Assembly: GCA_902596665.1 (NCBI GenBank)
Contig: CACJUN010000001.1
Location: forward strand, 131,680 to 195,679
DNA from: an uncultured SAR86 cluster bacterium
GTDB lineage: Bacteria; Pseudomonadota; Gammaproteobacteria; Magnimaribacterales; AG-339-G14
Direction: 5' to 3'
Length of the DNA: 64,000 bases
Part shown: positions 2,632 to 64,000 of the stretch, one piece after another
Layout of the letters: the number at the start of each line of letters is the position of its first letter
Numbering within the stretch: the stretch's first letter is position 1
The notes under the pieces: model-generated
Seen by the model: the letters and a program-made list of their open reading frames with translations, nothing else
Told to the model about the DNA's origin: nothing
Databases searched by the model: none
Made by a program: the position numbers and the translations under genes

Positions 2632-3339
2632 ATGAAATATTTTTTTACTACTTTATTTATTTTTTTTAGTCTTGTTTTAAGTTCCCAAGATAATAGGTTT
2701 CTTGATTCTTTGAAGTCTATTTTGCCTGCTAGTTTTGAAATTGAATCGGTTTCTGTATCCCCTCAAGAAGGTTTTTATGAAGTTAAACTAAGCGATGGTT
2801 CTTTGCTCTATGTATCAAATGATGGAAAAAGTATTTTCTATGGTGATCTTTTAAGGATCACTGATGAAGGCATTTTAAACCTTAGCGACGAGTCAAAAGC
2901 TAAGGCAAGGCTAGATAAAATTGAAGAACTAGATAAAACTACTTTGATTACATTCAAGGCTAAAAATCCTCTTCATCAAATATATGTATTCACTGATGTA
3001 GATTGTGGTTATTGCAGAAAATTTCACAGTCAAATTCAAGCATACAATGAACTTGGAATTCAGGTAAATTATTTAGCTTTCCCGAGGCAAGGTCTTGCTT
3101 CGGAAGCTGGTCAAAAAATTATATCCGCATGGTGTTCAACTGAAAAAAACAAATCTTTGACCTTGTTAAAGCAAGGTGAGGATATTGAAATCATGAATTG
3201 TCTCAATAATCCAGTGGAATCACACTATAATTTAGGGCGAAGTATGGGCGTCCAAGGGACCCCTGCAATTCTTAAAGAAGATGGAAGCATCATTCCAGGA
3301 TTTATTGAACCAGACAGGCTCATAAAATTACTCAATTAA
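2632..3339 (+). CDS. dsbC: thiol:disulfide isomerase DsbC
   Basis: Signal peptide, [19 protein letters not shown]. Confidence 0.93.
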
Positions 3340-7165: not shown

Positions 7166-8249
7166 ATGCAAGAGATTTCATTAAAGGATCGCTTAATAGC
7201 TGCAAAAAACTCTCTTGATGAGTTAAGGGGGTATCTTTGACTTATCGGATAAAGAGTCAAAATTAAAAGAGATTAATCTAGAACTTGAAAATCCTGAAGT
7301 TTGGCAAGATCAAGAAAAAGCTAAAATACTCAATAAAGAAAAATCTTTCTTAGAAAAAATAATAACCCTATATTCAGAATTATCTTCTAATGTAAATGAT
7401 CTAATTGAATTAGAAGCAATTTCGAGTGATTCAGAGATTAAAGATTTATCTGATGAAGTAGTTAATCTTGAATCACAACTTAAGGAATTGGAATTTCAAA
7501 GAATGTTCTCAAATAAGATGGATCCTAATGATGCTTTTCTTGATATTCAGGCAGGATCAGGAGGGACTGAGGCGCAAGATTGGGCAGAAATGTTGATGAG
7601 AATGTATCTTAGGTGGGGCGAAGATAAAAAATTTACAGTAGAAGTTATAGAGGTTTCTCCAGGTGATGTCGCTGGAATTAAAAGCGCTACAATAAAATAT
7701 TCAGGTGATTATGCTTACGGTTGGCTAAGAACAGAGACCGGAGTTCATAGACTTGTGAGAAAATCACCATTTGATTCAGGAAATAGAAGACATACCTCAT
7801 TTGCATCAATTTTCGTTTCTCCAGAAATAGATGACGATATTGAAGTAGATTTAAATCCTGCAGATATAAGAGTCGATACTTATCGTGCAAGTGGGGCTGG
7901 AGGGCAGCATGTTAATAAGACTGATTCTGCTGTTAGATTGACTCATGAACCAACCGGTATCGTTGTCCAATGTCAAAGTGGAAGATCCCAACATAGAAAT
8001 AAAGAAGAAGCCATGAAACAATTAAGAGCAAGGCTTTATGAGTTGGAACTAAATAAGAAAGAAGAGGAATTGCAGAGCCTAGAAGATTCAAAATCAGATA
8101 TTGGCTGGGGAAGTCAAATAAGGTCATATGTTTTAGATTCGTCTAGAATTAAAGATCTAAGAACTGGAGTAGAGACTTCAAACTGCAATTCAGTCCTGGA
8201 TGGTGATATCAACTTATTTATTGAGGCTAGTTTAAAAGAGGGCATTTAA
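7166..8249 (+). CDS. prfB: peptide chain release factor 2, expressed via programmed +1 frameshift (about 360 aa)
   Basis: ATG at 7166 runs 24 codons to CTT TGA. The +1 frame from GAC (7239) is open to 8249 and contains SPF and GGQ. The ORF track catches only 7488-8249. Confidence 0.96.
7226..7241 (+). promoter_or_regulatory. RF2 +1 frameshift cassette (internal SD AGGGGG, TAT, CTT TGA C)
   Basis: AGGGGGTATCTTTGAC read directly; matches the canonical prfB signal. Confidence 0.96.
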
Positions 8250-29288: not shown

Positions 29289-29870
29289 GTGAATTCAGAA
29301 AAAACATTAATCAAACTCAGTAAGGAAGGCAATAAACATGCTTTTGAGGCCCTAGTCATTAAACATCAAGATAAGTTAATGGGTTCATTAAACAAAATTT
29401 TCAAAAATCCAACTTTTTCTGAAGACATAGCTCAGGAAGCTTTTATTAAGGCTTATATAAATATCGGAGGCTTCAAGGAAGATAGTGCTTTTTTTACCTG
29501 GCTTTACCGAATTGCAGTAAATACAGCAAAGAATCATCTTTCTAGTAAATATAACAAAAATGAAATTATCGAGTCTGAAATAGATGAAAACATCCTTACT
29601 CAGATAGGCATTGATTCACCAAGCCCGGAATCAATTTTAGAAGCCAATACTTTGAGAGATAAGCTTTTTCAATGTCTTAATGACATGCCAGAAGAGATTA
29701 AATCTGCCATAACTCTTAGAGAATTCAATGGCCTTAACTACGAGGAGATTGCAAAAATATGTAATTGTCCAGTTGGTACGGTAAGGTCAAGAATATTCAG
29801 AGGGAGGCAAATATTAGATGAAATACAAATTTCTATAAATAACGAGGCGAAAAAGAATAATGGAAGATAG
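29289..29870 (+). CDS. rpoE: ECF sigma factor RpoE/AlgU
   Basis: DIAQEAFIKAY, FFTWLYRIAVNTAKN, CPVGTVRSRIFRGR. Confidence 0.93.
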   Translation: MNSEKTLIKLSKEGNKHAFEALVIKHQDKLMGSLNKIFKNPTFSEDIAQEAFIKAYINIGGFKEDSAFFTWLYRIAVNTAKNHLSSKYNKNEIIESEIDENILTQIGIDSPSPESILEANTLRDKLFQCLNDMPEEIKSAITLREFNGLNYEEIAKICNCPVGTVRSRIFRGRQILDEIQISINNEAKKNNGR

Positions 29871-30561
29871 CATAGAACATAGACTGTCTGCTCTGCTAGA
29901 TGGAGAAACGTCTGAATTTGAGACTAGACGGCTTATTGAAGAAATAAATAAAAATCCTGAGATTAAGAATCTTTGGATAAGAATGAATAAGACCAAATCC
30001 TTACTGACTGCAGAAATAGATTTCTCTGCAAGAAATATCGCTTCATCAGTCATTGAAGAGTTAGATGCTTCTAACATCAAACAAGTAAAATTCTCAAATG
30101 ATAAAAAATCAAAACAATTAAAGTATTACGGTTTTGCATTTGGTGTTTTATTATCACTGGGCCTTGTTTTTCAACCCTTTGTAACTCAAGAAAAAGAGTC
30201 GTTTAAGTCAACTTCTGTTATACCTGCGCTATCAATTGGAAATATTCCGGTATCATCAAATGAAAGTTATTTGCAAGAGATAGGTAACAATCTAAAAGGC
30301 AGCCTCAAGAAAATAGAATTTATGGAAGAAGGGGACATAATCGCAAATTACGTAGAGAACGATTCAAAAAGGAGTTTTAAGCTTAGAGTTTTATTCAGAG
30401 ACCTTTCAATAGAAGATAGAATTAAGTTATCTTCTACGGGAATAACGGTCCATTCTTTGGCAAACGATAAACCAGTAGTCATAAACTTATCAAGCGATGA
30501 AATCAATAACCAAGGCTTGGTTGAATTGTCGAACAGGATTTTTTTAAATTTAAGGAAATAA
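29860..30561 (+). CDS. rseA: anti-sigma factor RseA/MucA-like
   Basis: LSALLDGE N-terminus, single TM, position after rpoE. Confidence 0.75.
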   Translation: MEDSIEHRLSALLDGETSEFETRRLIEEINKNPEIKNLWIRMNKTKSLLTAEIDFSARNIASSVIEELDASNIKQVKFSNDKKSKQLKYYGFAFGVLLSLGLVFQPFVTQEKESFKSTSVIPALSIGNIPVSSNESYLQEIGNNLKGSLKKIEFMEEGDIIANYVENDSKRSFKLRVLFRDLSIEDRIKLSSTGITVHSLANDKPVVINLSSDEINNQGLVELSNRIFLNLRK

Positions 30562-30562
30562 A

Positions 30563-31981
30563 ATGAAAAAATTTTCAATATCACTGATTTTTCTTCTGCT
30601 TAGCATTTCTGTAACAGCAGATTATCCAGATTTTTCTGACTTAGTTGATGAAGCAGCTCCTGCTGTAGTGAATGTAAGTGTCATTAAAACAATCAGCACC
30701 CAGAACAGGATGAATCCTTTTAGTAGAAGACAAAATCCATTTGATGATTTTTTTAATTTCCCTTTTCCATTTGAAGATGAACCCAGAAGAGAGCAAGAAA
30801 GAGAGGTCAGATCAGGTGGCTCTGGTTTTATTATTTCAAAAGACGGTTACATAATAACGAATCATCATGTCGTAGAAGATGCTTCACAGATTTTTGTCAG
30901 TCTAAACGATAGGCGAGAATTCATAGCTGAACTTATTGGAAGTGATAAAAAATCTGATGTAGCTCTACTGAAGATATCTGCAAAAGAATCCTTACCTTTT
31001 TTAGATTTGGGAGACTCTGATGATGTGGATGTAGGTGACTGGGTACTAGCCATTGGTTCGCCTTATAGACTAAATTTTTCGGTCACAGCAGGAATTATTA
31101 GCGCCAAAGCTAGAAGTGTTCCTGGTCAAGGAACTTCTTATATTCCTTTTTTACAATCTGATGTTGCGATTAATCCAGGAAATTCAGGAGGTCCTCTATT
31201 CAATTTAGATGGTGAAGTAATCGGTATCAATGCAATGATTTACTCAAACAGAGGGGGATACATGGGGATTTCTTTCACAATACCTATCAACTATGCCCAA
31301 GAAATTATTGATCAATTAAGAGAAGATGGTTTTGTTAAAAGAGGCTGGTTAGGAGTAAGCGTTCAAGAAGTAACAAAGGATCTAGCGGATTCTTTTGGAT
31401 TGGATGTACCTAGAGGAGCACTAATTGGAAGCGTTTTAACCGATAGCCCTGCTGAATCTTCAGGCCTTAAAGATGGTGACGTAATTGTAGATTTTGATGG
31501 GAATGAAATTATTTACTCAGGTGATCTACCAATGGTTGTCGGTAGAATCTCCCCTGGAGAGGAAGTCAAGGCTACTGTTTACAGAGACGGTAGAAAAAAA
31601 TCTATCAGGGTGACTGTAGGAGAACTAGAAGAACCTGAAGAGGATAGTAACCCAATTGCTTCAGCACCAAAAAATAACAGACTTGGTATGATGGTTGAAG
31701 ATTTTGAAGACATAGCTGAGAGAAGAAATACGGACGTTGAAAAGATAAAAGAAAATTTTGGCGTTAAAGAAGGCGTAGTGGTAAGCAGGGTAGTTTCTGG
31801 GCCTGCCTTTGATGCAGGGCTGAGAAGAGGAGATGTGATCACAAGAATCGGCATGACTAATGTTTCGTCCAAAACAGAATATGAAAATGCTCTTGAAGAT
31901 TTGAATAATGAAAATGTTATCCCTTTAAGGTTTGTAAGAAACAAAAATGGTGCATTTGTTACGATAAAAATTAAAAAATAA
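30563..31981 (+). CDS. degP: DegP/MucD periplasmic serine protease with two PDZ domains
   Basis: GSGFII, TNHHVV, SDVALLK, INPGNSGGPL, RGWLGV. Confidence 0.92.
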   Translation: MKKFSISLIFLLLSISVTADYPDFSDLVDEAAPAVVNVSVIKTISTQNRMNPFSRRQNPFDDFFNFPFPFEDEPRREQEREVRSGGSGFIISKDGYIITNHHVVEDASQIFVSLNDRREFIAELIGSDKKSDVALLKISAKESLPFLDLGDSDDVDVGDWVLAIGSPYRLNFSVTAGIISAKARSVPGQGTSYIPFLQSDVAINPGNSGGPLFNLDGEVIGINAMIYSNRGGYMGISFTIPINYAQEIIDQLREDGFVKRGWLGVSVQEVTKDLADSFGLDVPRGALIGSVLTDSPAESSGLKDGDVIVDFDGNEIIYSGDLPMVVGRISPGEEVKATVYRDGRKKSIRVTVGELEEPEEDSNPIASAPKNNRLGMMVEDFEDIAERRNTDVEKIKENFGVKEGVVVSRVVSGPAFDAGLRRGDVITRIGMTNVSSKTEYENALEDLNNENVIPLRFVRNKNGAFVTIKIKK

Positions 31982-32018
31982 GGGATAATTGTCCAGCTTT
32001 TTTAAAAAGCACTAAATA

Positions 32019-33800
32019 ATGGACAACATAAGAAATTTTTCGATCATAGCTCACATTGATCACGGTAAATCCACTCTAGCTGATAGGCTCATAGAACACT
32101 GTGGAGGCTTATCTTCTAGAGAGATGAAAGAGCAAGTCTTAGATTCTCTCGAACTTGAAAGAGAAAGGGGCATAACAATCAAGGCTCAATCTGTTTTTCT
32201 TGAATACTCAACTAAAGAAGGGACTAATTATCAACTAAACCTAATTGATACTCCGGGACATGTAGACTTTTCTTACGAAGTTTCGAGATCTCTGGCAGCA
32301 TGTGAAGGAGCAATTCTCCTCGTTGATGCTTCACAAGGCGTTGAAGCTCAGACAGTTTCAACTTGTTATACAGCGATAGAGCAGGGCGTTAATATTTTTC
32401 CTGTATTGAATAAAATCGATCTTCCTCAAGCCGACCCAGATAAGGTTAGGAAGGAAATTGAAGAAATTATAGGAATAGATGCGTCTGATTGCCCTGAAAT
32501 CAGTGCAAAGAATGGACAGGGTATTGATAATCTTCTTGAACAATTAGTAGTTCAAGTTCCGCCCCCAGATGATACAGATGATTCTCTACAAGCTCTCATA
32601 ATTGACTCATGGTTTGATCAATACCTTGGGGTAGTGTCTCTGATAAGAATTTTTTCTGGATCAATAGACCTAGGTCAAAAAGTAAAAATTAGTTCAAATA
32701 ATCAAATTCATACTGTTGAAAAAATTGGTGTATTCACTCCAAAACCTGAAGATAGAAAATCACTCTCCAAAGGAGATGTTGGATTTATTTGTGCGGGGGT
32801 AAGAGAGGTAAGAGGAGCTCCAGTAGGTGACACTATATGTTTACCTAAAGATACAAAAATACTTCCTGGATTTAAAAAGATTAATCCTCAGGTTTTTGCT
32901 GCTTTATACCCTCTAGACTCAGGAGAATTTGAATCATTTAGAGAATCTTTAGAAAAATTAGCCATTAATGATGCGGCTTTATCTTTTCACCCGGAGCAGA
33001 GTCAAGCTTTAGGGTCTGGTTTTAGATGTGGGTTTTTAGGCACTCTTCATATGGAAATTGTGATTGAGAGAATTAAAAGAGAGTATGGCATAGAGCTTCT
33101 AGCTACAGCTCCTACGGTTGTTTATGAAATTGAAAACAAGGGAGGAGAGATTGAGGAAGTTGAAAACCCTAGCAAATTTCCTGATCCTGCTTCTATCGAA
33201 AAGATTCGTGAACCTATTGCGAAAGCTACCGTGCTTACTCCAGAAACCTATGTAGGAAACGTAATCGAATTATGCGTTGAAAAAAGAGGCGTACAGAAAT
33301 CATTAAGGTATGTCGGTGGGCAAATTGAATTAGTTTATGACTTACCTATGAATGAGATAATTTTAGATTTTTTTGATCGGCTAAAATCAACTAGCAAAGG
33401 ATACGCTTCTCTTGATTATGATTTTGATCGTTTTCAAGAAAGCCAAATGGTGAAAATGGATATCTTATTAAATGGAGAAAAAGTTGATGCCCTAAGCTCT
33501 ATGGTTCACAAATCCCAATCTGATTTTAAAGGAAGGCAACTCGTTAAATCGTTAAGAGAAGTTATTCCTCGTCAGATGTATGATGTCGCTATCCAAGCTG
33601 CAATAGGAGGAAAGATTCTTGCAAGAGAAACAGTCAAAGCTTTTAGAAAAGATGTTACTGCTAAACTCTATGGAGGAGATGTTACTAGAAAGAAAAAACT
33701 TTTAGAGAAACAAAAAGCTGGGAAGAAAAAAATGAGACATATTGGAAAGGTTGAAGTTCCCCAAGAAGCTTTCCTTTCAGTACTGAAAGTAAATAAATAA
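32019..33800 (+). CDS. lepA: elongation factor 4
   Basis: [48 protein letters not shown]. Confidence 0.98.
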
Positions 33801-34780
33801 TGAATTATTATTTTCTTCTTTATTTTTCTTTGCTGATCTCTTTATTAGGTATTGTTGGCTGGTTAGTTTCCGAGGCTAAATACGAAGGACGACACTCAAA
33901 ATTAATTAACAGAATAACCTTTGTTTTTCCATTTTTTGCTCTTTATGCTTGGTTTAGACTGAATCTAGACTTTGGCGTAGTTCTTGTTTTTTTGACTTTT
34001 GGCTCCCTGTTGATTTGGCTGCTTGCCAAATATTTAGCCATTCCTAGAGCAAGCAAAGAGAGTAGAAGTTTTTTTATCATCATATTAGCAATAACGATCT
34101 TTCGTTCTTTTTTATATGAACCTTTCCAAATTCCTTCATCTTCTATGTTTCCAGGATTGAAAATAGGAGATTTTTTGTTAGTAGAGAAATTTACATATGG
34201 ATTAAGAAACCCAGTAAATCAAAAAACTTTCATTCCTACAGGAAAACCAAAAAGAGGTGATGTGGTAATTTTTGTTCCAGAACACACTAAATGTAGCTCT
34301 GATTTTGATATTGCTAATCCTAGAGGATCTTATTCATCAGATAGAGAGAAAAATCAGAGAATGTATTACTGGAGCATCTTGTCTGAAAATTGCACTTCAC
34401 AGGGTGTTAAATATATTAAGAGGGTAATAGCTGAACCAGGCGATGAAGTTATTTATAGAAATAAAGAATTCATAATTAACGGCATTAAACTTGACCAAAA
34501 AATTCTTGATAAGAGAGATCAAGAGGAATTAATCGAGGAAATAAACGAAGGCAAGGAATATATTGTTCGAAAACTTTCTAGAAAACCTGAGAACGGTTCC
34601 TGGAATGTTCCCGAAGGATATTATTTTCTTGCTGGAGATAATAGAGATAACAGCCTTGATAGCAGAAGATGGGGACTAGTTCCACAAGAAGAAATTACCG
34701 GTAAAGCCTCACTAATCTGGATGCATTGGGAGTGTTTTTCGTGTTTGCCGTCATTGTCAAGAAATGGACTTATCAAATAA
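33800..34780 (+). CDS. lepB: signal peptidase I
   Basis: PFQIPSSSMFPGL (Ser), YIKRV (Lys), GDNRDNSLDSRRWG. Confidence 0.95.
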   Translation: MNYYFLLYFSLLISLLGIVGWLVSEAKYEGRHSKLINRITFVFPFFALYAWFRLNLDFGVVLVFLTFGSLLIWLLAKYLAIPRASKESRSFFIIILAITIFRSFLYEPFQIPSSSMFPGLKIGDFLLVEKFTYGLRNPVNQKTFIPTGKPKRGDVVIFVPEHTKCSSDFDIANPRGSYSSDREKNQRMYYWSILSENCTSQGVKYIKRVIAEPGDEVIYRNKEFIINGIKLDQKILDKRDQEELIEEINEGKEYIVRKLSRKPENGSWNVPEGYYFLAGDNRDNSLDSRRWGLVPQEEITGKASLIWMHWECFSCLPSLSRNGLIK

Positions 34781-35429
34781 TTTAGATTCTTTAGAGGAAC
34801 TACTCTCATATAAATTTTCTAAAAGAGAATTATTAAAACTTTCACTAACTCATAGGAGTTTTTCTCAAGAAAATAATGAAATTTATGAATTTTTAGGCGA
34901 CTCAATTATTAATCTGTGCGCATCAATCTGGCTAATGAATAAAAATAAAGATTTAAGTGAGGGTGAGTTAAGTTCTCTAAGATCAAAAATTGTTAGCAGA
35001 AAAAATCTAGGAAGGCTTGCTAAAAATTTTAAATTGGAGGAATTTGTAATACTGGGAAATTCAATTAGTAGAAAAAAAATCCATCAAACAGAAATTTTAG
35101 GGAATACTTTTGAGTCATTAGTTGCCGCCATCTACTTCGATTCAAACTTTGAGAATACTTCTAATTGGTTGTCTCAAGTTTTTGAAAAATACAGCGATTT
35201 GATGGATTTATCTCTGGAAAAAGACTCAAAAACAGAGCTCCAAGAGCTCCTGCAAAAAAGGCAACTACCTTTACCAAAATATCTGAATACTTCACCGAAA
35301 GAAGGTTTATTCGAAAGCTCCATAGTATCTGAACATAACAAACACTTTTTAGGTAAAGGCTCGAGTATCAAAGAGGCAGAGAAAGATGCTGCTGAAAATT
35401 ATTTGAAACACTTGATGAAAGATGAGTAA
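34764..35429 (+). CDS. rnc: ribonuclease III
   Basis: LTHRS, NE..EFLGDS, dsRBD KDSKTELQELLQ; synteny. Confidence 0.93.
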   Translation: MDLSNNLDSLEELLSYKFSKRELLKLSLTHRSFSQENNEIYEFLGDSIINLCASIWLMNKNKDLSEGELSSLRSKIVSRKNLGRLAKNFKLEEFVILGNSISRKKIHQTEILGNTFESLVAAIYFDSNFENTSNWLSQVFEKYSDLMDLSLEKDSKTELQELLQKRQLPLPKYLNTSPKEGLFESSIVSEHNKHFLGKGSSIKEAEKDAAENYLKHLMKDE

Positions 35430-36324
35430 GTTTGGATTTATATCAATAGTTGGAAAAACTAATGTTGGTAAATCTACCTTGCTCAATAAAATTTTGGAAA
35501 GAAAGTTAGCGATTACATCAAGGAAGCCTCAAACCACAAGAAATAGAATTCTAGGAGCATGGAATCATGAAGATATGCAGGCAATATTTCTTGATACGCC
35601 CGGTGTTCATACTGGCCATAAAAAAGCTCTAAATAAATATATGAATCAGGTGGCAATGCATGCTTTAAAGAATGTTGACCTTATTTTGTTCATTGTCGAT
35701 CGAGATAGATGGGGTGAGGAAGAAGAAAGAATTATCAAGCAATTAAACGGATCTAAAATCCCCGTAATTCTGGTGATAAATAAGATAGACAGGATAAAGA
35801 ATAAAGAAGATTTGTTACCAACAATAGAAAAATTAAAAGCAAAGTTTGATTTTGAAGAGATCATCCCTATATCAGCCCTGAAAAATAAAAATGCTCCAAA
35901 AGAGCTGTATGAAGTAATTATTAATTATCTACCTCATGGCCAACCGCATTACGAAGAAGATTTTGTAACAGACTTGTCTAAGGAATTTTTTATCTCAGAG
36001 ATAATCAGAGAAAAGGCCATAAATAGGTTGGGCGATGAACTACCTTACAGCATCAGCATCATCATAGATGCCTTAAAGGAAGATAAGAAATTACTCAGTA
36101 TTTCTGCAACCATTTACGTGGATAGTAAGTCACATAAACCTATATTGCTGGGTAAAAAAGGGGATATGATGAAATCTATTGGAACGGCAGCAAGAAAAGA
36201 AATTCAATTTGAGTACGATAAAAAAGTATTTTTAGAATTATGGGTGAAAGTCAAAAAAAAATGGACCGATGATGTTAACTGGATCTCTCAACTTGGCTAC
36301 GACTTGAAAAAATATGAAAACTAG
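35422..36324 (+). CDS. era: GTPase Era
   Basis: GKTNVGKSTL, KPQTTR, DTPG, NKID, KH domain. Confidence 0.96.
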   Translation: MSKFGFISIVGKTNVGKSTLLNKILERKLAITSRKPQTTRNRILGAWNHEDMQAIFLDTPGVHTGHKKALNKYMNQVAMHALKNVDLILFIVDRDRWGEEEERIIKQLNGSKIPVILVINKIDRIKNKEDLLPTIEKLKAKFDFEEIIPISALKNKNAPKELYEVIINYLPHGQPHYEEDFVTDLSKEFFISEIIREKAINRLGDELPYSISIIIDALKEDKKLLSISATIYVDSKSHKPILLGKKGDMMKSIGTAARKEIQFEYDKKVFLELWVKVKKKWTDDVNWISQLGYDLKKYEN

Positions 36325-37006
36325 AAATAGTCTAGCCTTTCTTCTACATGCAAGAGATTATTCAGAGACAAGCGTTATAGCAAGTTTTTTGACAAAGGAT
36401 TTTGGAATCCTCAATGCTTTGTTAAAAGGTGCTAAACGAAAAGGGAGTAAATTTGCAAATATCTTATCGCCAGGCTCAGAACTTTATATCAGTTACTCTG
36501 ATAAAAATGCCCTGAAAACCATCTTCGAATGTGAAATAAATAAGCAAATTCCAATAGCACCAAAAAATCTTAAAATTCTTATTTACCTCAATGAACTGAT
36601 TTTAAAAATTTTTGAAAAAGAACATGATATTCCTGTCGTATTTAAAGACTATGATGAATTAATGAGCCTTATGACAATAGATAATAAAGATGAGATCCTA
36701 GAGCTATCTTTAAGAAATTTTGAATATAGATTAATTACAGATTTAGGTTATGGTTTTGATTTGACTAAAAATGATATAGGAAGCTCAATTGAACCCGATC
36801 AGGATTATCTATTCAGTCCATTAAGAGGAATATATTCCTTGGATAAAGGAGAAATAGAATCATCCTTTAAAGGGCAGCATTTATTAGATTTTATGTCTGG
36901 AAAGTTTTCAAATAATATGACTAAGAAAGTAATAAAATCTATTTTTAGAGAATCATTGGAAGCGATCCTGGGTAAAGAGTTGAATGCAAGAAAATATTTC
37001 AATTAA
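36314..37006 (+). CDS. recO: DNA repair protein RecO
   Basis: LHARDYSETS, KGAKR, YLNEL; follows era. Confidence 0.85.
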   Translation: MKTRNSLAFLLHARDYSETSVIASFLTKDFGILNALLKGAKRKGSKFANILSPGSELYISYSDKNALKTIFECEINKQIPIAPKNLKILIYLNELILKIFEKEHDIPVVFKDYDELMSLMTIDNKDEILELSLRNFEYRLITDLGYGFDLTKNDIGSSIEPDQDYLFSPLRGIYSLDKGEIESSFKGQHLLDFMSGKFSNNMTKKVIKSIFRESLEAILGKELNARKYFN

Positions 37007-43718: not shown

Positions 43719-45548
43719 TTGAATAATTTCTCTTTGTGGAAATACATCCTTGTTTTGGGTGTGTTCTTATTTGGAATTATTTACGCTTTGCCAAATCTGA
43801 GCCCGCCAGATCCAGCTGTTCAAGTTTCCCTTCAAAGTGCAGGTGACTCTTTTGATAGTCGCCTAGTTCAGTCTGTTAGAAATATAGTCAGAAAAGAAGG
43901 CATCTTAGACGAAAATATCGAGGTAAATCAGAAATCATTACTTATAAGAACAGATTCATACGAAGAACAAATCAAATTAAAGGATGAATTGCGACGTGAA
44001 TTAGGGCCAGATTATGTTGTTGCTCTAAATTTAGCTTACTCAACGCCCGATTGGCTCCAAAATCTTAATGCTTCTCCTTTAAAACTTGGTTTAGATTTAA
44101 GAGGAGGAATCTACTTTTTATTAGAGGTAGATACTGACTCACTTATCGAAACAAGGCTTGAGGCTAACGCAGAAGATTTTAAAAGAAGGCTCAGAGAGGA
44201 ATCTTTAAACTTTAGATCCATAGAAAGCGACAAAGAATCAGTTACTTTTCTTTTTGCGACTGACGAAGATAAATCAGACTCTTTGTCATTCCTAAGAGGC
44301 TTTTTAACAGATTTTGAAATCATCGAAGAATTTGAATCATTTAAAATAAAATTTTCTAGAGAAGGCATTACATCAATACAAGATTATGCAGTTCAGCAAA
44401 ATTTAACTACTCTCAGAAATAGAGTTAATGAGTTAGGCGTATCTGAACCTGTGGTTCAAAGAGAAGGGGCCAAAAGAATTTCTGTTCAGTTACCTGGAAT
44501 ACAAGATACTGCTGAGGCTAAAAAAATAATTGGTAAAACTGCTAATTTAGAATTCAGACTCGAAGCAAATAATCGAACGCTGAGATCAAGAAAAGAACCT
44601 TTTGATTTCAGGGGAGTTAGCGTTGATCTTGAGAAAAATATTATCATTTCTGGAGACAAGGTAGCTGATGCAAATGTTGGATATGATGAAAGCGGATTTC
44701 CACAAGTTAACATTACTTTAGATGGAGAGGGCGGAGCCAAAATGCATAGGTCGACAAGAAATAATGTCGGCAGAAAAATGGCTGTTCTTTTCATAGAAAG
44801 AAAGTCAGCAGCCAAAGAAGTTGTTCTGCCTGACGGAACTTTAGATTTGATCATTGAACCAGTAATCACTAAGAGGGTTATAAGTCTGGCAACAATTCAA
44901 TCTGCACTGCCTAACAGATTCAGGATCACTGGACTTGATTCACCTAATGAGGCATCCGAATTAGCATTATTGCTGCGTGCAGGTGCTTTAGCAGCTCCAA
45001 TGGAGTTTGTTGAGGAAAGCACAGTAGGCCCAAGTCTCGGAGCTGAAAATATTCGATTGGGAATTCAGTCTTTAATCCTAGGGCTCTTTTTAGTTCTGAT
45101 ATTCATGGTGGTTTATTACAAAATCTTTGGCCTATTTGCCAACATAGCAGTAATTTTTAACCTAATTCTCATTACAGCAATCATGTCAATTTTATCCGCC
45201 ACTCTGACCTTGCCGGGTATTGCAGGAATTGTTTTAACCGTTGGTATGGCTGTCGATGCCAACGTTTTAATTTTCTCAAGGATTCGAGAAGAACTTAAAA
45301 ATAACTCACGAGCTACAGATGCAATTATTGCTGGCTACGACAGAGCTTTTGTTACCATTCTTGATGCAAATATTACTACTTTAATTGTTGCTGTTATTCT
45401 CTATGCTATAGGCACAGGTCCTATAAAAGGCTTTGCTATCACTTTAAGTATTGGAATAGTTACCTCGATGTTCACATCAATTTTAGGAACCAGAGCGATG
45501 GTTTCATTGATATATCGAAAAAATAACGTAAGGAGGCTTTGGATCTAA
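43719..45548 (+). CDS. secD: protein translocase subunit SecD
   Basis: LKLGLDLRGG, RNRVNELGVSEP, VQLPG, VGPSLG, GMAVDANVLI. Confidence 0.97.
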   Translation: MNNFSLWKYILVLGVFLFGIIYALPNLSPPDPAVQVSLQSAGDSFDSRLVQSVRNIVRKEGILDENIEVNQKSLLIRTDSYEEQIKLKDELRRELGPDYVVALNLAYSTPDWLQNLNASPLKLGLDLRGGIYFLLEVDTDSLIETRLEANAEDFKRRLREESLNFRSIESDKESVTFLFATDEDKSDSLSFLRGFLTDFEIIEEFESFKIKFSREGITSIQDYAVQQNLTTLRNRVNELGVSEPVVQREGAKRISVQLPGIQDTAEAKKIIGKTANLEFRLEANNRTLRSRKEPFDFRGVSVDLEKNIIISGDKVADANVGYDESGFPQVNITLDGEGGAKMHRSTRNNVGRKMAVLFIERKSAAKEVVLPDGTLDLIIEPVITKRVISLATIQSALPNRFRITGLDSPNEASELALLLRAGALAAPMEFVEESTVGPSLGAENIRLGIQSLILGLFLVLIFMVVYYKIFGLFANIAVIFNLILITAIMSILSATLTLPGIAGIVLTVGMAVDANVLIFSRIREELKNNSRATDAIIAGYDRAFVTILDANITTLIVAVILYAIGTGPIKGFAITLSIGIVTSMFTSILGTRAMVSLIYRKNNVRRLWI

Positions 45549-46450
45549 TGAACTTTAATCTAGATTTTCTAAGATTCAGATTCATTGCACTGATTGCATC
45601 GGTTTCTTTTATTTTGGTATCTCTTGCTACGATTTCTATTCAACAACTGCAACTAGGTTTGGATTTCACCGGAGGAACGCTTGTAGAAGTAGGATTCTCT
45701 GAAGCTGTTGATCCAGAGGAGATTAGAACTTATCTTGAAGGGAAACAAATAGATGCACTAGTTCAAGCTTTTGGTTCTGATAAAGACTTACTAATTAAAA
45801 TTCCGAGTTCAGAGAATATTGAAAATGCGAATATTGTCATTGATTCTTTGCAGCAGCAATATTCATTTCAATTAAGAAGATCAGGCTTTGTTGGCCCCCA
45901 AGTTGGAGGTGAATTAAGAGATCAGGGAGGCCTGGGTCTTTTAGCAGCTCTTTTAGTAATGATGATATACATCATGTTTAGGTTTCAATATAAATTTGCA
46001 ATTGGAGCTGTAGTTGCCCTTTTTCATGATGTGTTGATCGTTTTGGGTATATTCTCGATACTTAGATTGGAATTTGATCTTTCAGTCTTAGCAGCACTGA
46101 TGGCGGTTATTGGATATTCTTTAAACGATACAATTGTCGTATCAGACAGGATTAGAGAAAATTTTAGAGCCAAGAGAAAGCTAAATAGCGAACAAGTCAT
46201 TAATAGATCTCTCAACAATACTTTAGGTAGAACTTTAATCACCTCACTGACAACTTTATTGGTTCTTTTTTCATTGTTATTTTTAGGCGGAGAGATTATT
46301 AGAAATTTTGCAATCGCCTTATCGATTGGAGTGGTTGTTGGAACATATTCTTCTATTTATGTCCTAACAAATGTTTTGCTATCAATGAACATTACTGCTG
46401 ATGATCTTGCAGAAAGAACTAAAGACAGTTTTGACGATGGAATGCCTTAA
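45548..46450 (+). CDS. secF: protein translocase subunit SecF
   Basis: LGLDFTGG, VGPQVG, HDVLI, GYSLNDTIVVSDRIRE, GTYSSIY. Confidence 0.97.
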   Translation: MNFNLDFLRFRFIALIASVSFILVSLATISIQQLQLGLDFTGGTLVEVGFSEAVDPEEIRTYLEGKQIDALVQAFGSDKDLLIKIPSSENIENANIVIDSLQQQYSFQLRRSGFVGPQVGGELRDQGGLGLLAALLVMMIYIMFRFQYKFAIGAVVALFHDVLIVLGIFSILRLEFDLSVLAALMAVIGYSLNDTIVVSDRIRENFRAKRKLNSEQVINRSLNNTLGRTLITSLTTLLVLFSLLFLGGEIIRNFAIALSIGVVVGTYSSIYVLTNVLLSMNITADDLAERTKDSFDDGMP

Positions 46451-49945: not shown

Positions 49946-49952
49946 TGATTTA

Positions 49953-50088
49953 CGTTCATTTAGTATTTTTCATTAAATTTACTAAACGGAAGTAGGGAGA
50001 TAGGAAAACCTCTTTCTTTGATCTAAAAGAAAGGTAAGCAAGTACCAAGAAATTGGGAACGAGACCGAATATCTACCGAAGGAACGCG
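49953..50088 (+). ncRNA. glutamine riboswitch, glnA-motif type, with enlarged P3
   Basis: CGUUCA-[P2 UUUAGUA/UACUAAA]-CGGAAGUAGG-[P3]-CCGAAGGAACGCG; P1 = CGUUC/GAACG. Matches the glnA RNA core as recalled. Confidence 0.85.
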
Positions 50089-50148
50089 TTGATAAGGGTG
50101 TATACCGATTGGTATATGTACGTTTGAAACGAAAACTGGAGGAACGAT

Positions 50149-57822: not shown

Positions 57823-58521
57823 ATGGGAGAAATATTAGCTGTTGACGATTACGTTGGTATATCGTTTTGGTTAGCTACCGCTATCATGTTAGCTGCAACT
57901 GTTTTCTTTTTTGTTGAAAGATCAGATGTTCCGGCTAAATGGAAAACATCTCTTACTGTCGCTGGTTTAGTGACTGGTATTGCCTTTTGGCACTACTTAT
58001 ACATGAGAGGTGTTTGGATTTATGCAGGTGAAACTCCGACTGTATTCAGATACATCGACTGGTTGATCACTGTACCTCTTCAAATTGTTGAGTTTTATTT
58101 AATTATTGCTGCTGTTACAGCAGTTAGCTCAGCCGTATTCTGGAAACTTCTAATTGCATCACTTGTGATGTTAATTGGTGGTTTCATTGGAGAAGCAGGT
58201 CTTGGTGATGTAGTCGTATGGTGGATCGTTGGAATGATCGCTTGGCTTTACATCATTTATGAAATCTTCATGGGTGAAACTGCAAAAGCAAACGCTGGCA
58301 GTGGACACCTTGCAAGTCAACAAGCATTCAACACAATCAAATGGATTGTGACTATTGGTTGGGCAATTTACCCAATTGGATACGCTTGGGGTTACTTCGG
58401 AGATGGTTTAAATGAAGATGCTCTAAACATTGTTTATAACCTTGCAGATTTAATTAATAAAGCTGCGTTCGGTTTAGCAATTTGGGCAGCTGCTAAAAAA
58501 GCGTCCGGTCACGTAACGTAA
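57823..58521 (+). CDS. proteorhodopsin, DTE proton pump, Gln105 (blue-tuned)
   Basis: WHYLYM (His75), RYIDWLITVPLQIVEF (D97/T101/Q105/E108), DLINKAAFG (retinal Lys). Confidence 0.97.
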   Translation: MGEILAVDDYVGISFWLATAIMLAATVFFFVERSDVPAKWKTSLTVAGLVTGIAFWHYLYMRGVWIYAGETPTVFRYIDWLITVPLQIVEFYLIIAAVTAVSSAVFWKLLIASLVMLIGGFIGEAGLGDVVVWWIVGMIAWLYIIYEIFMGETAKANAGSGHLASQQAFNTIKWIVTIGWAIYPIGYAWGYFGDGLNEDALNIVYNLADLINKAAFGLAIWAAAKKASGHVT

Positions 58522-59337: not shown

Positions 59338-59694
59338 ATGGAAAGTATATTAGAAAATATATTCGTTTTCGAAGATTTATCACTTAGAGGATTTGTCTTT
59401 GGCTTTGTCCATGTTGCATTGATTCTTATAGGTTATTACACAGGATGGAGTATTAATAGATTTTTGAAGATTCTCTCAAAAGGTTATATAGCCAGCATAA
59501 TAGGAGCTGCTAGTGCTCACGTAATAGCTGATTTAGTAGCATCCCTTATTGATCCATCAATCCGACCTATGACTACAGGCATTCTGGTAGGCGGAATTAT
59601 TCCCCTATTATTGATACCGATTTTTGAAAAGTATGTTGTGAAAAGCGATGATCACATAATGGTAGGGGATCACGAGGATATAAAAAGGATTTAG
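59338..59694 (+). CDS. small three-TM membrane protein
   Basis: Hydrophobic segments with intramembrane His/Asp; His/acidic tail. Confidence 0.7.
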   Translation: MESILENIFVFEDLSLRGFVFGFVHVALILIGYYTGWSINRFLKILSKGYIASIIGAASAHVIADLVASLIDPSIRPMTTGILVGGIIPLLLIPIFEKYVVKSDDHIMVGDHEDIKRI

Positions 59695-60729: not shown

Positions 60730-61380
60730 CTAATGATTATGAATATGTGGAGGATGGTCGTTTTCAAAAGTTCCCTCAGGCGGTCCGTAATCTATTCCCG
60801 AAAGAGTCATATTGGTGATTACACTGTTCCCATTTTTGGCACTGTTGACAGTATAAAAATTCCCATCGCTAAAAACAGAACCGGTGATTAAAAAACTTCC
60901 TGCAACAATTGTTGAATTACCTACATCATCTTGACTGAAAGACTTAACCACTTTATTGCCTATTTTCATTTCAAGCTTACCGATATTAAGCTCTAAGGTT
61001 TTATTATCTTGGACATCAATCAAGACTTTGTCGCCAACAATTAAATCTGCAACTGTTGATTTGAAGTTAGTCATCAAGAGGAATGCATCAGAGTTTGCAT
61101 CTTGCACATTGTAATCTTCAGGTATTTGAATAGTTTTTACTTCGTGAGTTATTGGGGTAGTTCTATTACTGAATTTTGTAACATCTCCATTAAATGAGGC
61201 GTCATCCTCAGCTATTGAAACCGAAATCTCTTTCCCATTAATTCTTTTTGTTTGAAAATTGTACTTATCAGCAAGGTTAACCGGAAAAATTTCTTTTACT
61301 GCAATCTTTTCTTCATCCTCATTAAAGTAAAAATAAAGACCCAAAGAAATTAATAGAAAAAGGATTATAGCTTTTATCAT
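60730..61380 (-). CDS. N-terminally anchored periplasmic protein, putative protease prodomain/chaperone (CpaB-like)
   Basis: N-terminal TM, beta-rich LIVGDKVLI...ITGSVFS.G.FYTV, C-terminal DHPPHIHNH; abuts the protease stop. Confidence 0.55.
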   Translation of the reverse strand: MIKAIILFLLISLGLYFYFNEDEEKIAVKEIFPVNLADKYNFQTKRINGKEISVSIAEDDASFNGDVTKFSNRTTPITHEVKTIQIPEDYNVQDANSDAFLLMTNFKSTVADLIVGDKVLIDVQDNKTLELNIGKLEMKIGNKVVKSFSQDDVGNSTIVAGSFLITGSVFSDGNFYTVNSAKNGNSVITNMTLSGIDYGPPEGTFENDHPPHIHNH

Positions 61381-64000
61381 TTACTGTACTAATGGATCTA
61401 AAGGAGCACTATCAAATTGATCTGATACTCCATCGTTATCATCATCATCTTCGCCAACAAAATTATTATCCATTCCATCACCATCTGTATCTACTGAGAC
61501 AAGTTGCCAAACTTCGCCGTGATGTTCAAATTGAGCGATACCAACTTCTGGATGAAGGTAGAACTTATTAAAATAAGATGCGCTTTCTTTTGCATCACTG
61601 CTGTATTGCTGTTGAACTAGCATAAATGTGATGTAGTCACCGTAAGGAGTACTTACAGCTTGGTATCTATTTTCAATACCTGAAAAGGCAGGAAGGTTAT
61701 ATGGCAAAGATTCTTTAGCATACTCAGTTGGATCTTTACCCTTGAATGTATGAACAGCTAAAAAGCCTCCTGCAACTCCGTTCCACCTATCGACAAGATA
61801 TTCGAATCCTTTAAAAGCACAATCAAACTCTTGGTAGTGACCAGGAGAGAAGGTTGCACTAAGAAAAGGACATCCTAATGAAGAGTCGAGATCATATCTT
61901 AAGGCTGGACCTCCTTGATAAATTGGTCTCAAATTAGATCCATCGCTAGCAGGCCAATTTTTATTATCGTCATAAGCAGAGAGAAAATAGTGACCTTCAG
62001 GGCTTATTCTAAATCTAAACACGGTTTGAGAAGGATCGTAAAATCCAGCCCAGCGTGGTTCTTCGCCTTCAATAAAATCTCCATGGCCAAGAGCTCCCAC
62101 AGGGCAGTTATGCTTGGTAGGATGCCTGTTATCATCGAAATTATCACAAATCTCTTGTCTGGTAGAGCAGTGTTTAGCATAAGAAATATATCCACAATAT
62201 TCTTTGCCAAGATCTTCTACAAATCTAAATTCTTGATATGAAGTACCATCAATCGTTACTGGATCGTCTTCGATAACGAGCATTCTTTTTGTTCTTTGTC
62301 CGTTAGTGAAGGTGTATTCACCACCATCAATCAAAGGAAATAACATTCTTGATGATACAGCCGGAGAGGTCGCGGATGAATCGTATCTATCCATATCAAC
62401 CTGATTATTACCGGCAACTTCACCAGCCAGTTGAGCTTCTTTGTGTTCCCAAAGATTGGCGTAGTAATAAGACCACTCGTTAAATAAATCTCTTGCCATC
62501 TCTCCGCCGCTATCAACACTGCTGTCGTAGATATTTCCATCCTCATTTCCATCCACTGGAGGTTTTTGACAGACGATTGGTTCACTGTTCAAATCATCGT
62601 TAGGTACACAAGTTCTTGAAGAACTTGTTTCCATAACAGTTGAAGAGCTATGAGATTGAGTAATAACCTGATCCGGAGGAACTTTCATACTACCTCCACC
62701 ATTCATAAGAGTATCTTTTCCTATATTTTCAAAGTTTACTCCAGCACATAAAGACCCTTTTGGACTTGTATTACTGTTTTCCGGCCTATTATGTGCAGCA
62801 CACATTGTATGACCGATTTCATGCCATAGAGTATCTATATAGTCATACCACAAAACAGGAGCTATCTCTGGAGCCATGCTTCCTGGCACCATGTTTTCTT
62901 GTTCTTCGGGATTGTTACCTGTACTAAAGCCTGAAAGTATATTGATGCCTTCCCAAGTTGCGAGAAAATTAGCATCGGTATCCCAATCCCTTTTGCTGCC
63001 AGCTACACCGCTAACAGGAGCTTTAGGATTATTGTTTTCTAAATTAGTCATTAAAACCATATGAAAATCTGCTTCTACCGCGTCATGCGCTGCTCTTCTT
63101 TGATTGAGTGCTTCGTTACATTGATCTGTTTCAAACACATATTCTTCGTAATTGGTGCAACCGTTTGAATACCATAAAGGGAAATAAGGGTGATCGAGAG
63201 AATCTTCAGAAATCGGAGCGTCCCAAAAATCTGATCCCACAATGTTCCATTCAAGTTTAATCCTCTGATTGACGTACATCTCATTGATCACCTCAAACAT
63301 GAAGGCTGCTCTGGTATCCATAGCAGATTTACCTGCTTCTCCATCACCAAAGTGAACTTGACTATCCTTGGAATACCATAAATAAACATTGGCCACTTTA
63401 GGCGGGGCAGCTTCAGCAGCTGCCTGAGCAGCTGCATCTTCAGCAGCAATCTCAGCTTGTTGAGCCTCATAATCAGCTACCATTTGTTCAGCCAGACTCA
63501 ATGGTTCAGGTTCAGGGGGAGAATTTTCGACTAACTCCGCAATGACTTCATTAACATTTTCATTTTCGTTAGCGCTTGCCAAGTCGGTATCTTCAATATC
63601 CTCAGCAGTGATTTCATCGCCAGCAGCTTGAATCACTATATCAACACTAGCTTGAAGTTCATCATTATTCGAGGCCGACCAATTGATGTCATCACTTTCA
63701 TCTACAGCTAGTCCTGAATCTGGTATCTGAGAGCTCAAATCCTGAGAAAGTATCGGTGCTTCATTAACTTTTAATCTTGTTGCATCAATACTTAAAGTTG
63801 CAGATAAAGTCTCAACAATCGATTCTGCGTTATATGAATCAATTTTTTCATCCGAAGCAGTACCCTCAACTATTTCAACTACATCGCTTAAAAAAGTAGT
63901 CACCCCAAAGGATAAGACCGCTTTAGTTGTTTCATCATCTTGATCGGCAGATATGGTGGAAACTAAATTCGCTACGGCATTTACAACGTTTGATAACTTA
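61381..64000 (-). CDS. large acidic secreted metzincin (reprolysin/M12B-like) with TSP3-like C-terminus; 5' end outside the window
   Basis: HEIGHTMCAAH (62791-62823), Met-turn DTLM, DTDGDG...DDDNDGVSDQFDSAP.DP. Frame stays open from the track start (63903) to the window edge. Confidence 0.8.
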   Translation of the reverse strand, partial: KLSNVVNAVANLVSTISADQDDETTKAVLSFGVTTFLSDVVEIVEGTASDEKIDSYNAESIVETLSATLSIDATRLKVNEAPILSQDLSSQIPDSGLAVDESDDINWSASNNDELQASVDIVIQAAGDEITAEDIEDTDLASANENENVNEVIAELVENSPPEPEPLSLAEQMVADYEAQQAEIAAEDAAAQAAAEAAPPKVANVYLWYSKDSQVHFGDGEAGKSAMDTRAAFMFEVINEMYVNQRIKLEWNIVGSDFWDAPISEDSLDHPYFPLWYSNGCTNYEEYVFETDQCNEALNQRRAAHDAVEADFHMVLMTNLENNNPKAPVSGVAGSKRDWDTDANFLATWEGINILSGFSTGNNPEEQENMVPGSMAPEIAPVLWYDYIDTLWHEIGHTMCAAHNRPENSNTSPKGSLCAGVNFENIGKDTLMNGGGSMKVPPDQVITQSHSSSTVMETSSSRTCVPNDDLNSEPIVCQKPPVDGNEDGNIYDSSVDSGGEMARDLFNEWSYYYANLWEHKEAQLAGEVAGNNQVDMDRYDSSATSPAVSSRMLFPLIDGGEYTFTNGQRTKRMLVIEDDPVTIDGTSYQEFRFVEDLGKEYCGYISYAKHCSTRQEICDNFDDNRHPTKHNCPVGALGHGDFIEGEEPRWAGFYDPSQTVFRFRISPEGHYFLSAYDDNKNWPASDGSNLRPIYQGGPALRYDLDSSLGCPFLSATFSPGHYQEFDCAFKGFEYLVDRWNGVAGGFLAVHTFKGKDPTEYAKESLPYNLPAFSGIENRYQAVSTPYGDYITFMLVQQQYSSDAKESASYFNKFYLHPEVGIAQFEHHGEVWQLVSVDTDGDGMDNNFVGEDDDDNDGVSDQFDSAPLDPLVQ

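Follow-up and report, generated by a model that had tools for sequence, protein, structure and literature searches.

At one end of a 64,000-nucleotide stretch of the genome of an uncultured SAR86 cluster bacterium (contig CACJUN010000001.1, positions 131,680 to 195,679; hereafter the window, in whose own numbering positions are given) lie two abutting genes on the minus strand. One encodes a large acidic protein with the zinc-binding motif of metzincin peptidases, and the other a 216-amino-acid protein with an N-terminal membrane anchor. Comparison with related loci supports the small gene as a true partner of the putative protease, inherited together with it, and the two genes probably work as a functional pair. 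A sequence-only reading of the window had proposed a system akin to CpaA and CpaB of Acinetobacter, in which the small protein is a trans-acting, membrane-anchored prodomain or chaperone whose terminal histidines act as a 'histidine switch' on the catalytic zinc. Of this proposal the co-inherited pairing is supported; kinship with CpaB and the histidine switch are not. Two of the findings that were named there as refuting, a failure of the genes to co-occur and a recognisable prodomain in the upstream part of the protease, were looked for and not seen.

The large gene occupies 61381–64000 (−) as its C-terminal 872 codons and stop codon. The frame is open from 63999 to the TAA at 61381–61383, and the gene starts outside the window; the GTG that the list of open reading frames (ORFs) gives as its start, at 63903, is simply the first in-window start codon, an artefact of the window edge. 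The ATG of the small gene (61378–61380) follows the TAA directly, with 0-nt spacing and in the same frame, and the earlier remark that the protease ends right before the start of the 216-amino-acid protein is confirmed.

Conservation of the pair across two lineages

Word-indexed searches with the large protein returned close SAR86 relatives only, and a one-genome-per-species scan located it in four SAR86 assemblies, from single cells or metagenomes, with 92–99% identity. The same kind of search with the small protein also recovered SAR86 relatives throughout (62–94% identity). When the small protein was the query of an exhaustive HMMER profile search over 1.84 billion representative proteins, the yield was SAR86 fragments and one remote match, a protein of 193 amino acids (P0023; E = 3 × 10−4), which was confirmed by hhalign (probability 95%, E = 3.8 × 10−8) over residues 50–180 of the window protein. 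This search was blind to gene context, and the locus that encodes P0023 was looked up afterwards. There, a large gene faces the P0023 gene tail-to-tail, and their stop codons overlap in TTAA. The large gene encodes a lipoprotein of 1042–1043 amino acids (signal MISKLFIWIFSVLIVSC, followed by GGGG) that has an N-terminal domain and stalk homologous to those of the SAR86 protein, Big_9/cadherin domains, a canonical reprolysin domain (HELGHNLGSGH ... GTIMSY), and the same C-terminal domain and Asp-rich tail. By BLASTP, its N-terminal 390 amino acids are collinear with the SAR86 protein (E = 2 × 10−11) and the C-terminal ends match at E = 3 × 10−13. The small protein of this second clade also has an N-terminal membrane helix. 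The second-clade contigs have a G+C content of 31%, in one source the protein is labelled 'Gammaproteobacteria bacterium', and a metagenome scan added three close relatives of this clade only.

Both genes are present at 18 of the 18 loci examined, 7 of which were reached via the large protein and 11 via the small one; their co-occurrence extends over two deeply diverged clades. Protein identity between the clades is 20–27% and the genes are still neighbours, even though the flanks differ (a glycosyltransferase at all second-clade loci, with an unannotated ORF in L016; a TonB-dependent receptor, LysR and proteorhodopsin in SAR86) and one gene of the pair is inverted between the clades. It is this adjacency, kept despite changed flanks and orientation in the only other lineage that has either gene, that leads us to regard the two as probably working together.

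Some features of the comparison weigh against a functional pair. Only two clades are available, both marine Gammaproteobacteria, which makes for few independent observations, and the second-clade genes are convergent, so that co-transcription is not conserved. These points, together with the fact that no common domain or known interaction motif was found, would suit an alternative in which there is no functional link and an unrelated membrane protein has been kept beside the protease by descent. We consider this distinctly unlikely: the surroundings and the orientation of one gene have changed while adjacency persists, neither gene occurs alone at any of the 18 loci, and in SAR86 the stop and start codons abut.

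The small gene is under purifying selection in both clades, with a ratio of non-synonymous to synonymous substitution rates (dN/dS) of 0.12 in SAR86 and 0.12–0.19 across both clades. Contigs from marine metatranscriptomes extend over both SAR86 genes, and the junction (61271–61455) is spanned by one of them; the pair is transcribed in situ in the sea, subject to the possible presence of DNA in the libraries, since metatranscriptome contigs can include DNA carry-over. Scans for promoters and terminators told us little: they turned up fewer sites here than in shuffled sequence.

The catalytic domain

The large protein appears to be a zinc peptidase of the reprolysin-like (metzincin) kind, diverged but probably active. 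The HExxHxxxxxH motif and Met-turn noted in the sequence-only reading are both present. The motif, HEIGHTMCAAH, supplies three histidines and the catalytic glutamate (62791–62823 (−); direct reading and alignment), and its chance expectation in the large protein, calculated from the composition of the protein, is ~0.0007. It aligns with HELGHNLGSGH and HEIGHNLGLAH of two reprolysin-like relatives, from the second clade and from Xanthomonas, respectively; a SAR86 clade at 59% identity carries HEIGHTMCAKH. The Met-turn, DTLMN (62701–62715 (−)), aligns with GTIMS of the second clade and NTIMA of Xanthomonas, and its Met sits 28 residues past the third histidine, a spacing that is the same in the Xanthomonas enzyme. 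In an alignment of the window protein, the second-clade protein and the 'reprolysin-like metallopeptidase' of a Xanthomonas plasmid, the residues H, E, G, H, H, T and M do not vary. We assign the protein to the metzincins because the motif and the T-x-M turn are intact, because both align with these relatives, and because the protein is collinear and homologous with the second-clade protein, which passes the Pfam thresholds (Reprolysin_5, Reprolysin_4 and Reprolysin_3 at 43, 35 and 34.5 bits; Reprolysin_5 cutoff 27).

The domain in the window (62431–63405 (−); about 325 amino acids, 6 Cys) was delimited from sub-threshold Pfam matches and from its collinear homologue. The SAR86 domain stays below the Pfam thresholds (Reprolysin_5, 3, 4 and 2 at E = 0.007–0.1), with Reprolysin_5 the best match for the window protein at 17 bits against a cutoff of 27 (E = 0.007). 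The usual Gly of HExxHxxGxxH is Cys in both SAR86 clades, and is Gly in the second clade and Xanthomonas. Taken alone, the catalytic domains align weakly between the clades (hhalign E = 0.038), and that of SAR86 bears large insertions. Sequence and profile searches of the PDB gave noise only for the SAR86 catalytic domain and the full-length protease, and a weak fragilysin match (E = 0.21) for the second-clade domain. The sub-threshold scores, the insertions, the Cys in place of a conserved Gly and the empty PDB searches would fit a surface protein for adhesion or binding whose metzincin domain has decayed, and for which the partner would be no latency factor. We think this very unlikely, given that both SAR86 clades, at 59% identity, retain the three zinc histidines, the Glu and the Met-turn, which looks like the pattern expected from selection for catalysis.

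A second Cys, 17–18 residues after the Cys of the motif (SLCAG or SLCMG, at about 62740–62750 (−)), is also kept in both SAR86 clades. A disulfide between the two may pin the active-site helix.

Architecture of the large protein

The full-length protein has ~1137 amino acids, of which 872 lie in the window and the first 265 outside it. We read the N-terminal part from a SAR86 relative (L008:4612–8025) that is identical to the window protein at 861 of 872 residues (99%). In this relative, a lipoprotein signal (MSRIFNLSVKKFFKFFLILFVVAC) is followed by seven glycines (Gly7), an N-terminal domain of ~90 amino acids, an acidic stalk of ~280 amino acids, an Ala-rich linker, a catalytic region of ~345 amino acids (6 Cys), a domain of ~290 amino acids (6 Cys) and an Asp-rich tail of 37 amino acids; the signal, the Gly7 linker, the N-terminal domain and the start of the stalk are the parts that lie beyond the window. 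The 59%-identity SAR86 clade (L006) has the same domain plan.

A lipobox Cys followed by glycines is common to both lineages (..LFVVAC-GGGGGGG in L008, ..IIVTAC-GGGG in L006 and ..VLIVSC-GGGG in the second clade). From the lipobox in the L008 and L006 relatives, the enzyme is predicted to be a lipoprotein rather than a plain soluble exoprotein. The phrase 'secreted metzincin' in the sequence-only reading was thus apt for the metzincin-type zinc peptidase and imprecise in 'secreted'. Secretion through a type II secretion system (T2SS), also part of that reading, finds no support in a protein with a lipoprotein signal and in a 64-kb window in which a motif scan and Pfam searches of 40 further ORFs found no T2SS gene and housekeeping genes only. 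The SAR86 literature is silent on secretion systems. Possible export routes include a T2SS, another route for surface lipoproteins, or simply Lol.

The whole protein is acidic (isoelectric point 4.15; D+E 17%). The visible part of the stalk (63502–63999 (−)) was identified from its composition and the collinear BLASTP match; over its full length of ~280 amino acids, the stalk has a D+E content of 25% and no Cys. The Ala-rich linker read directly from the sequence, LSLAEQMVADYEAQQAEIAAEDAAAQAAAEAAPPK, ends in PPK (63397–63501 (−)). The acidic stretch and Ala/Pro linker described ahead of the catalytic domain are therefore as claimed. The absence of a recognisable prodomain also holds now that the missing 5′ end has been recovered from L008: no Pfam or NCBIfam prodomain lies upstream of the catalytic domain, full-length relatives included, and the recovered end contains the lipoprotein signal and Gly7. 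The Xanthomonas relative (WP_033481893.1) has an N-terminal region of ~160 amino acids between its signal peptide and its catalytic domain, and both marine proteins are without such a region directly before theirs.

Downstream of the catalytic domain, a C-terminal domain of ~291 amino acids (61495–62367 (−); 6 Cys) is shared with the second clade, by BLASTP at E = 9 × 10−8 and at the above 3 × 10−13 at its end, and at E = 0.003 at its start; it has no Pfam match. The protein closes with an Asp-rich acidic repeat tail (DTDGDGMDNN..DDDDNDGVSD; 61384–61494 (−)), which was read directly and is kept in the second clade. We take this tail to be of the calcium-binding, thrombospondin-type-3-like kind, and it probably binds calcium.

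At 61447–61475, within the tail, contigs from three metatranscriptomes diverge from the window on both sides, with loose ends of ≤255 letters, which suggests strain variants with different repeat content. In polished long-read assemblies (L001–L004), the protease gene is split by frameshifts into 2–6 called genes, and several database 'homologues' of the small protein (P0011, P0013, P0014 and P0020) are chimeras or have frameshifted ends; such entries would mislead automated alignment.

The partner and its histidine-rich tail

The 216-amino-acid partner (60730–61380 (−)) belongs to an orphan family, and its delineation draws on the ORF list, the searches, the dN/dS values and the metatranscriptomes described above. 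Its N terminus forms a predicted signal-anchor or transmembrane helix (IKAIILFLLISLGLYFYF; 61324–61377 (−)), identified by hydropathy and by its second-clade equivalent: residues 1–19 have a mean Kyte–Doolittle value of 2.18 and are followed by the acidic flank NEDEEK, and the F at position −1 leaves no signal-peptidase site. The body of the protein is predicted to face the periplasm, held by this single N-terminal anchor. A conserved core at residues 105–178 (NFKSTVADLIVGD ... GSVFSDGNFYTV; 60847–61068 (−)) is defined by hhalign and by invariant columns. The protein has no Cys, and neither it nor the large protein had a match in an NCBIfam scan. The small family shows no similarity to the domains of the large proteins themselves. 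AlphaFold2 models had a predicted local distance difference test score (pLDDT) of 32 with a 4-sequence alignment and 38.8 with 8 sequences including the remote clade, and both were unusable.

We tried a number of family assignments for the partner and rejected each. A serralysin-type inhibitor (Inh/AprI) found no Pfam, NCBIfam or PDB match, and the Lif family no Lipase_chap or other Pfam or NCBIfam match. For the M12B propeptide (Pep_M12B_propep) there was no Pfam match at E ≤ 10 and there is no switch Cys. A suspected resemblance of the partner core to M12B-type propeptides was dropped after negative results with Pfam and with hhalign against the N-terminal region that the Xanthomonas relative carries in cis, where nothing was found. 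The CpaB/SRPBCC family was rejected in the same way, having no match in the PDB or in per-member Pfam scans.

CpaB is the membrane-bound chaperone of CpaA, an adamalysin-like T2SS protease of Acinetobacter (PMC4713064, PMC6299215, PMC7542363); it has been described as SRPBCC-like (PMC4713064), and its tail occupies and blocks the active site of CpaA (PMC7542363). The window partner has the N-terminal anchor and the DHPPHIHNH C terminus ascribed to it in the sequence-only reading. The His-rich residues belong to a C-terminal extension (EGTFENDHPPHIHNH; 60733–60777 (−)) that comparison of relatives shows to be clade-specific: HPPHIHNH is kept in all relatives above 90% identity and the His-rich tail is present only in these. 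Even among relatives at 92–99% identity, His209 is H, Q or Y, and HIHNH is replaced by LPSN in the clade at 62% identity. The second-clade protein lacks a His-rich tail; one alignment places its end, ..GEDFIMP, opposite GIDYGPP, and the tail is not confidently alignable between the clades. No His is invariant anywhere in the small-protein family. The histidine switch is not supported, since the family has no conserved His and only one sub-clade carries the tail, which seems to be a late addition of that sub-clade and not a conserved mechanism.

As to kinship, phmmer and profile searches of all PDB chains (E ≤ 10) gave noise only for the partner and did not return CpaB, although the PDB holds the CpaA–CpaB complex (6O38; PMC7542363), and there is no SRPBCC match in Pfam. 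We therefore hold it highly improbable that the partner is a CpaB-like T2SS chaperone or trans-prodomain whose terminal histidines ligate the catalytic zinc. Its adjacent gene, its N-terminal anchor, the tail kept among close relatives and the precedent of the CpaB tail speak for such a role. They are opposed by the variation of His209 and of HIHNH, by a second clade that lacks the His-rich tail, by the missing similarity to CpaB/6O38 or SRPBCC, by a substrate that is itself a lipoprotein, and by the window having no T2SS gene.

Proposed role of the partner

The most likely role of the partner, to which we give an even chance, is that of a periplasmic chaperone and/or a latency factor for the protease. 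The protease precursor would cross the inner membrane via Sec and be lipidated on Cys24, and its 12 Cys would be oxidised in the periplasm. The Gly7 linker, the small N-terminal domain and the ~280-amino-acid acidic stalk would hold out the catalytic domain, the ~290-amino-acid domain and the repeat tail. While still near the inner membrane, the protease would meet the periplasmic body of the anchored partner, which would help it to fold and/or keep it silent until departure. The enzyme would then move on to the outer membrane or the cell surface and cut proteins or peptides there. The job of the partner would be that of a cis prodomain in ordinary metzincins, or that of CpaB or Lif in trans, and could fall to the ~160-amino-acid cis N-terminal region in the Xanthomonas relative. 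We infer that the partner acts in a CpaB-like manner and is not kin to CpaB.

Two considerations temper this proposal. Its support comes from comparative genomics, and contact with the protease, or an effect on it, is deduced from context. In addition, the partner has no detectable similarity to chaperone, prodomain or inhibitor families in Pfam (searched per member), NCBIfam or the PDB (by sequence and profile). The evidence of co-inheritance would serve equally well for a different role in the same system: an aid to export or sorting, zinc hand-over with the His tail as a capture arm in zinc-poor seawater, or tethering or regulation of the enzyme. Such roles, which we judge possible but unlikely, could accommodate the unusual Gly linkers of the two large lipoproteins and the His-rich tail of one sub-clade. 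Neither Pfam nor NCBIfam links the partner to Lol, Slam, pilotin or metallochaperone families, the His tail is not conserved, and this account is wholly inferential.

A bolder form of the chaperone or latency proposal is that the partner is the first of a new family of factors that act in trans, tethered to the inner membrane, in the maturation or latency of surface-displayed lipoprotein metzincins in the most abundant Gammaproteobacteria of the ocean. It would be a split-off functional counterpart of a prodomain, with a fold of its own, to which one SAR86 sub-clade has added a His arm that delivers or caps zinc in zinc-poor seawater. In this full form we find it decidedly doubtful.

Relation to known systems

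The kind of system, a protease with an adjacent membrane-anchored helper, is known; the helper family appears to be new and unrelated to the known one. New here too are the client, a predicted stalked lipoprotein, and the host, a dominant ocean bacterium. With CpaA/CpaB, the SAR86 pair shares a reprolysin/adamalysin-like zinc protease that has no prodomain in cis, a small gene directly downstream (22 bp in Acinetobacter, 0 bp in SAR86) and a partner with one N-terminal transmembrane helix and a periplasmic body, a topology that is predicted in SAR86. It differs in that the SAR86 partner has no CpaB/SRPBCC similarity and no conserved tail, that the SAR86 protease is a predicted lipoprotein, raised on a long stalk and fitted with different accessory domains, and that the second clade has its partner gene in convergent orientation.

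CpaB- and Lif-type chaperones as a class are encoded by adjacent genes, N-terminally membrane-anchored and periplasmic (PMC4713064). Compared with this group of T2SS chaperones bound to the membrane, the SAR86 genes are adjacent, with 0-nt spacing and an RNA-derived contig over the junction, and those of the second clade are adjacent but convergent; an N-terminal transmembrane helix and a periplasmic body are predicted in both clades. Lif, LipB and LipH are likewise adjacent, membrane-anchored periplasmic helpers for one exported enzyme, but their client is a lipase, and Lif is all-helical (Pfam Lipase_chap), with no match in the SAR86 partner.

Metzincin inhibitors (Inh/AprI of serralysins and the potempins of Tannerella) are also small proteins encoded beside a metzincin that meet it in the periplasm and could silence it. 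Inh/AprI and the potempins are soluble or lipoprotein beta-barrels with cleaved signals, whereas the SAR86 partner is predicted to be anchored by an uncleaved helix and has no Pfam or PDB match to them. The cis prodomains of M12B and bacterial reprolysin-like enzymes (for example, WP_033481893.1) are similar in size (~160–190 amino acids) and in the would-be role in folding and latency. In contrast, the partner acts, if at all, in trans, is membrane-anchored, has no Cys and hence no cysteine switch, and does not match Pep_M12B_propep. On the side of the enzyme, the closest parallels are T2SS surface lipoprotein hydrolases (PulA, SslE and InvL; PMC12802150), which are large, lipidated and probably displayed outside the cell as we envisage for the SAR86 protease, but no T2SS, pilotin or GspN gene lies near the SAR86 pair.

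If the proposal is correct, a stalked, lipid-anchored metzincin and its dedicated partner would be a concrete piece of the machinery with which SAR86 attacks extracellular proteins. In the surface ocean, SAR86 bacteria rank with the most abundant heterotrophs, and to our knowledge little has been written on how they do this. CpaB is the sole characterised trans-acting helper of metzincins that we know of, and the partner would represent a second, unrelated family, a sign that this solution arose more than once. Should the pairing not be functional, what would be left is a diverged reprolysin-like lipoprotein beside an orphan membrane protein.

Neighbouring genes and other features of the window

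In both SAR86 clades, the order protease, partner, LysR, metallo-beta-lactamase (MBL)-fold protein, proteorhodopsin and MatE is kept. The proteorhodopsin gene (57823–58521 (+)) lies at a distance of three to four genes from the pair. A 118-amino-acid ORF with predicted membrane segments (59338–59694 (+)), located between the genes for LysR and the MBL-fold protein, has weak Pfam hints to Mntp and MscL, and is not called as a gene in related long contigs. Just past the window end, read from L008 (2199–4574 (−)), a gene for a 791-amino-acid TonB-dependent receptor with a Plug domain is divergent from the protease gene and begins 37 nt from the protease start. It lies beside the pair in both SAR86 clades and is absent beside it in the second clade; the receptor could take up products of the protease, a link that is not conserved.

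Elsewhere in the window, the sequence CTTTGAC at 7235–7241 (+) lies upstream of an ORF (7488–8249) with an RF-1/PCRF domain that lacks the N-terminal part in frame, and is presumably a classical prfB programmed +1 frameshift site. Genes for an extracytoplasmic function (ECF) sigma factor, a 233-amino-acid protein, a DegP/DegQ-like protease, LepA, signal peptidase I, RNase III, Era and RecO follow one another at 29289–37006 (+); the 233-amino-acid ORF beside the sigma factor has no Pfam match and is possibly an anti-sigma factor. SecD and SecF are encoded at 43719–46450 and DsbC at 2632–3339. A glutamine riboswitch of the glnA-leader type (Rfam RF01739; 40.6 bits against a cutoff of 35) is located at 49951–50090 (+).

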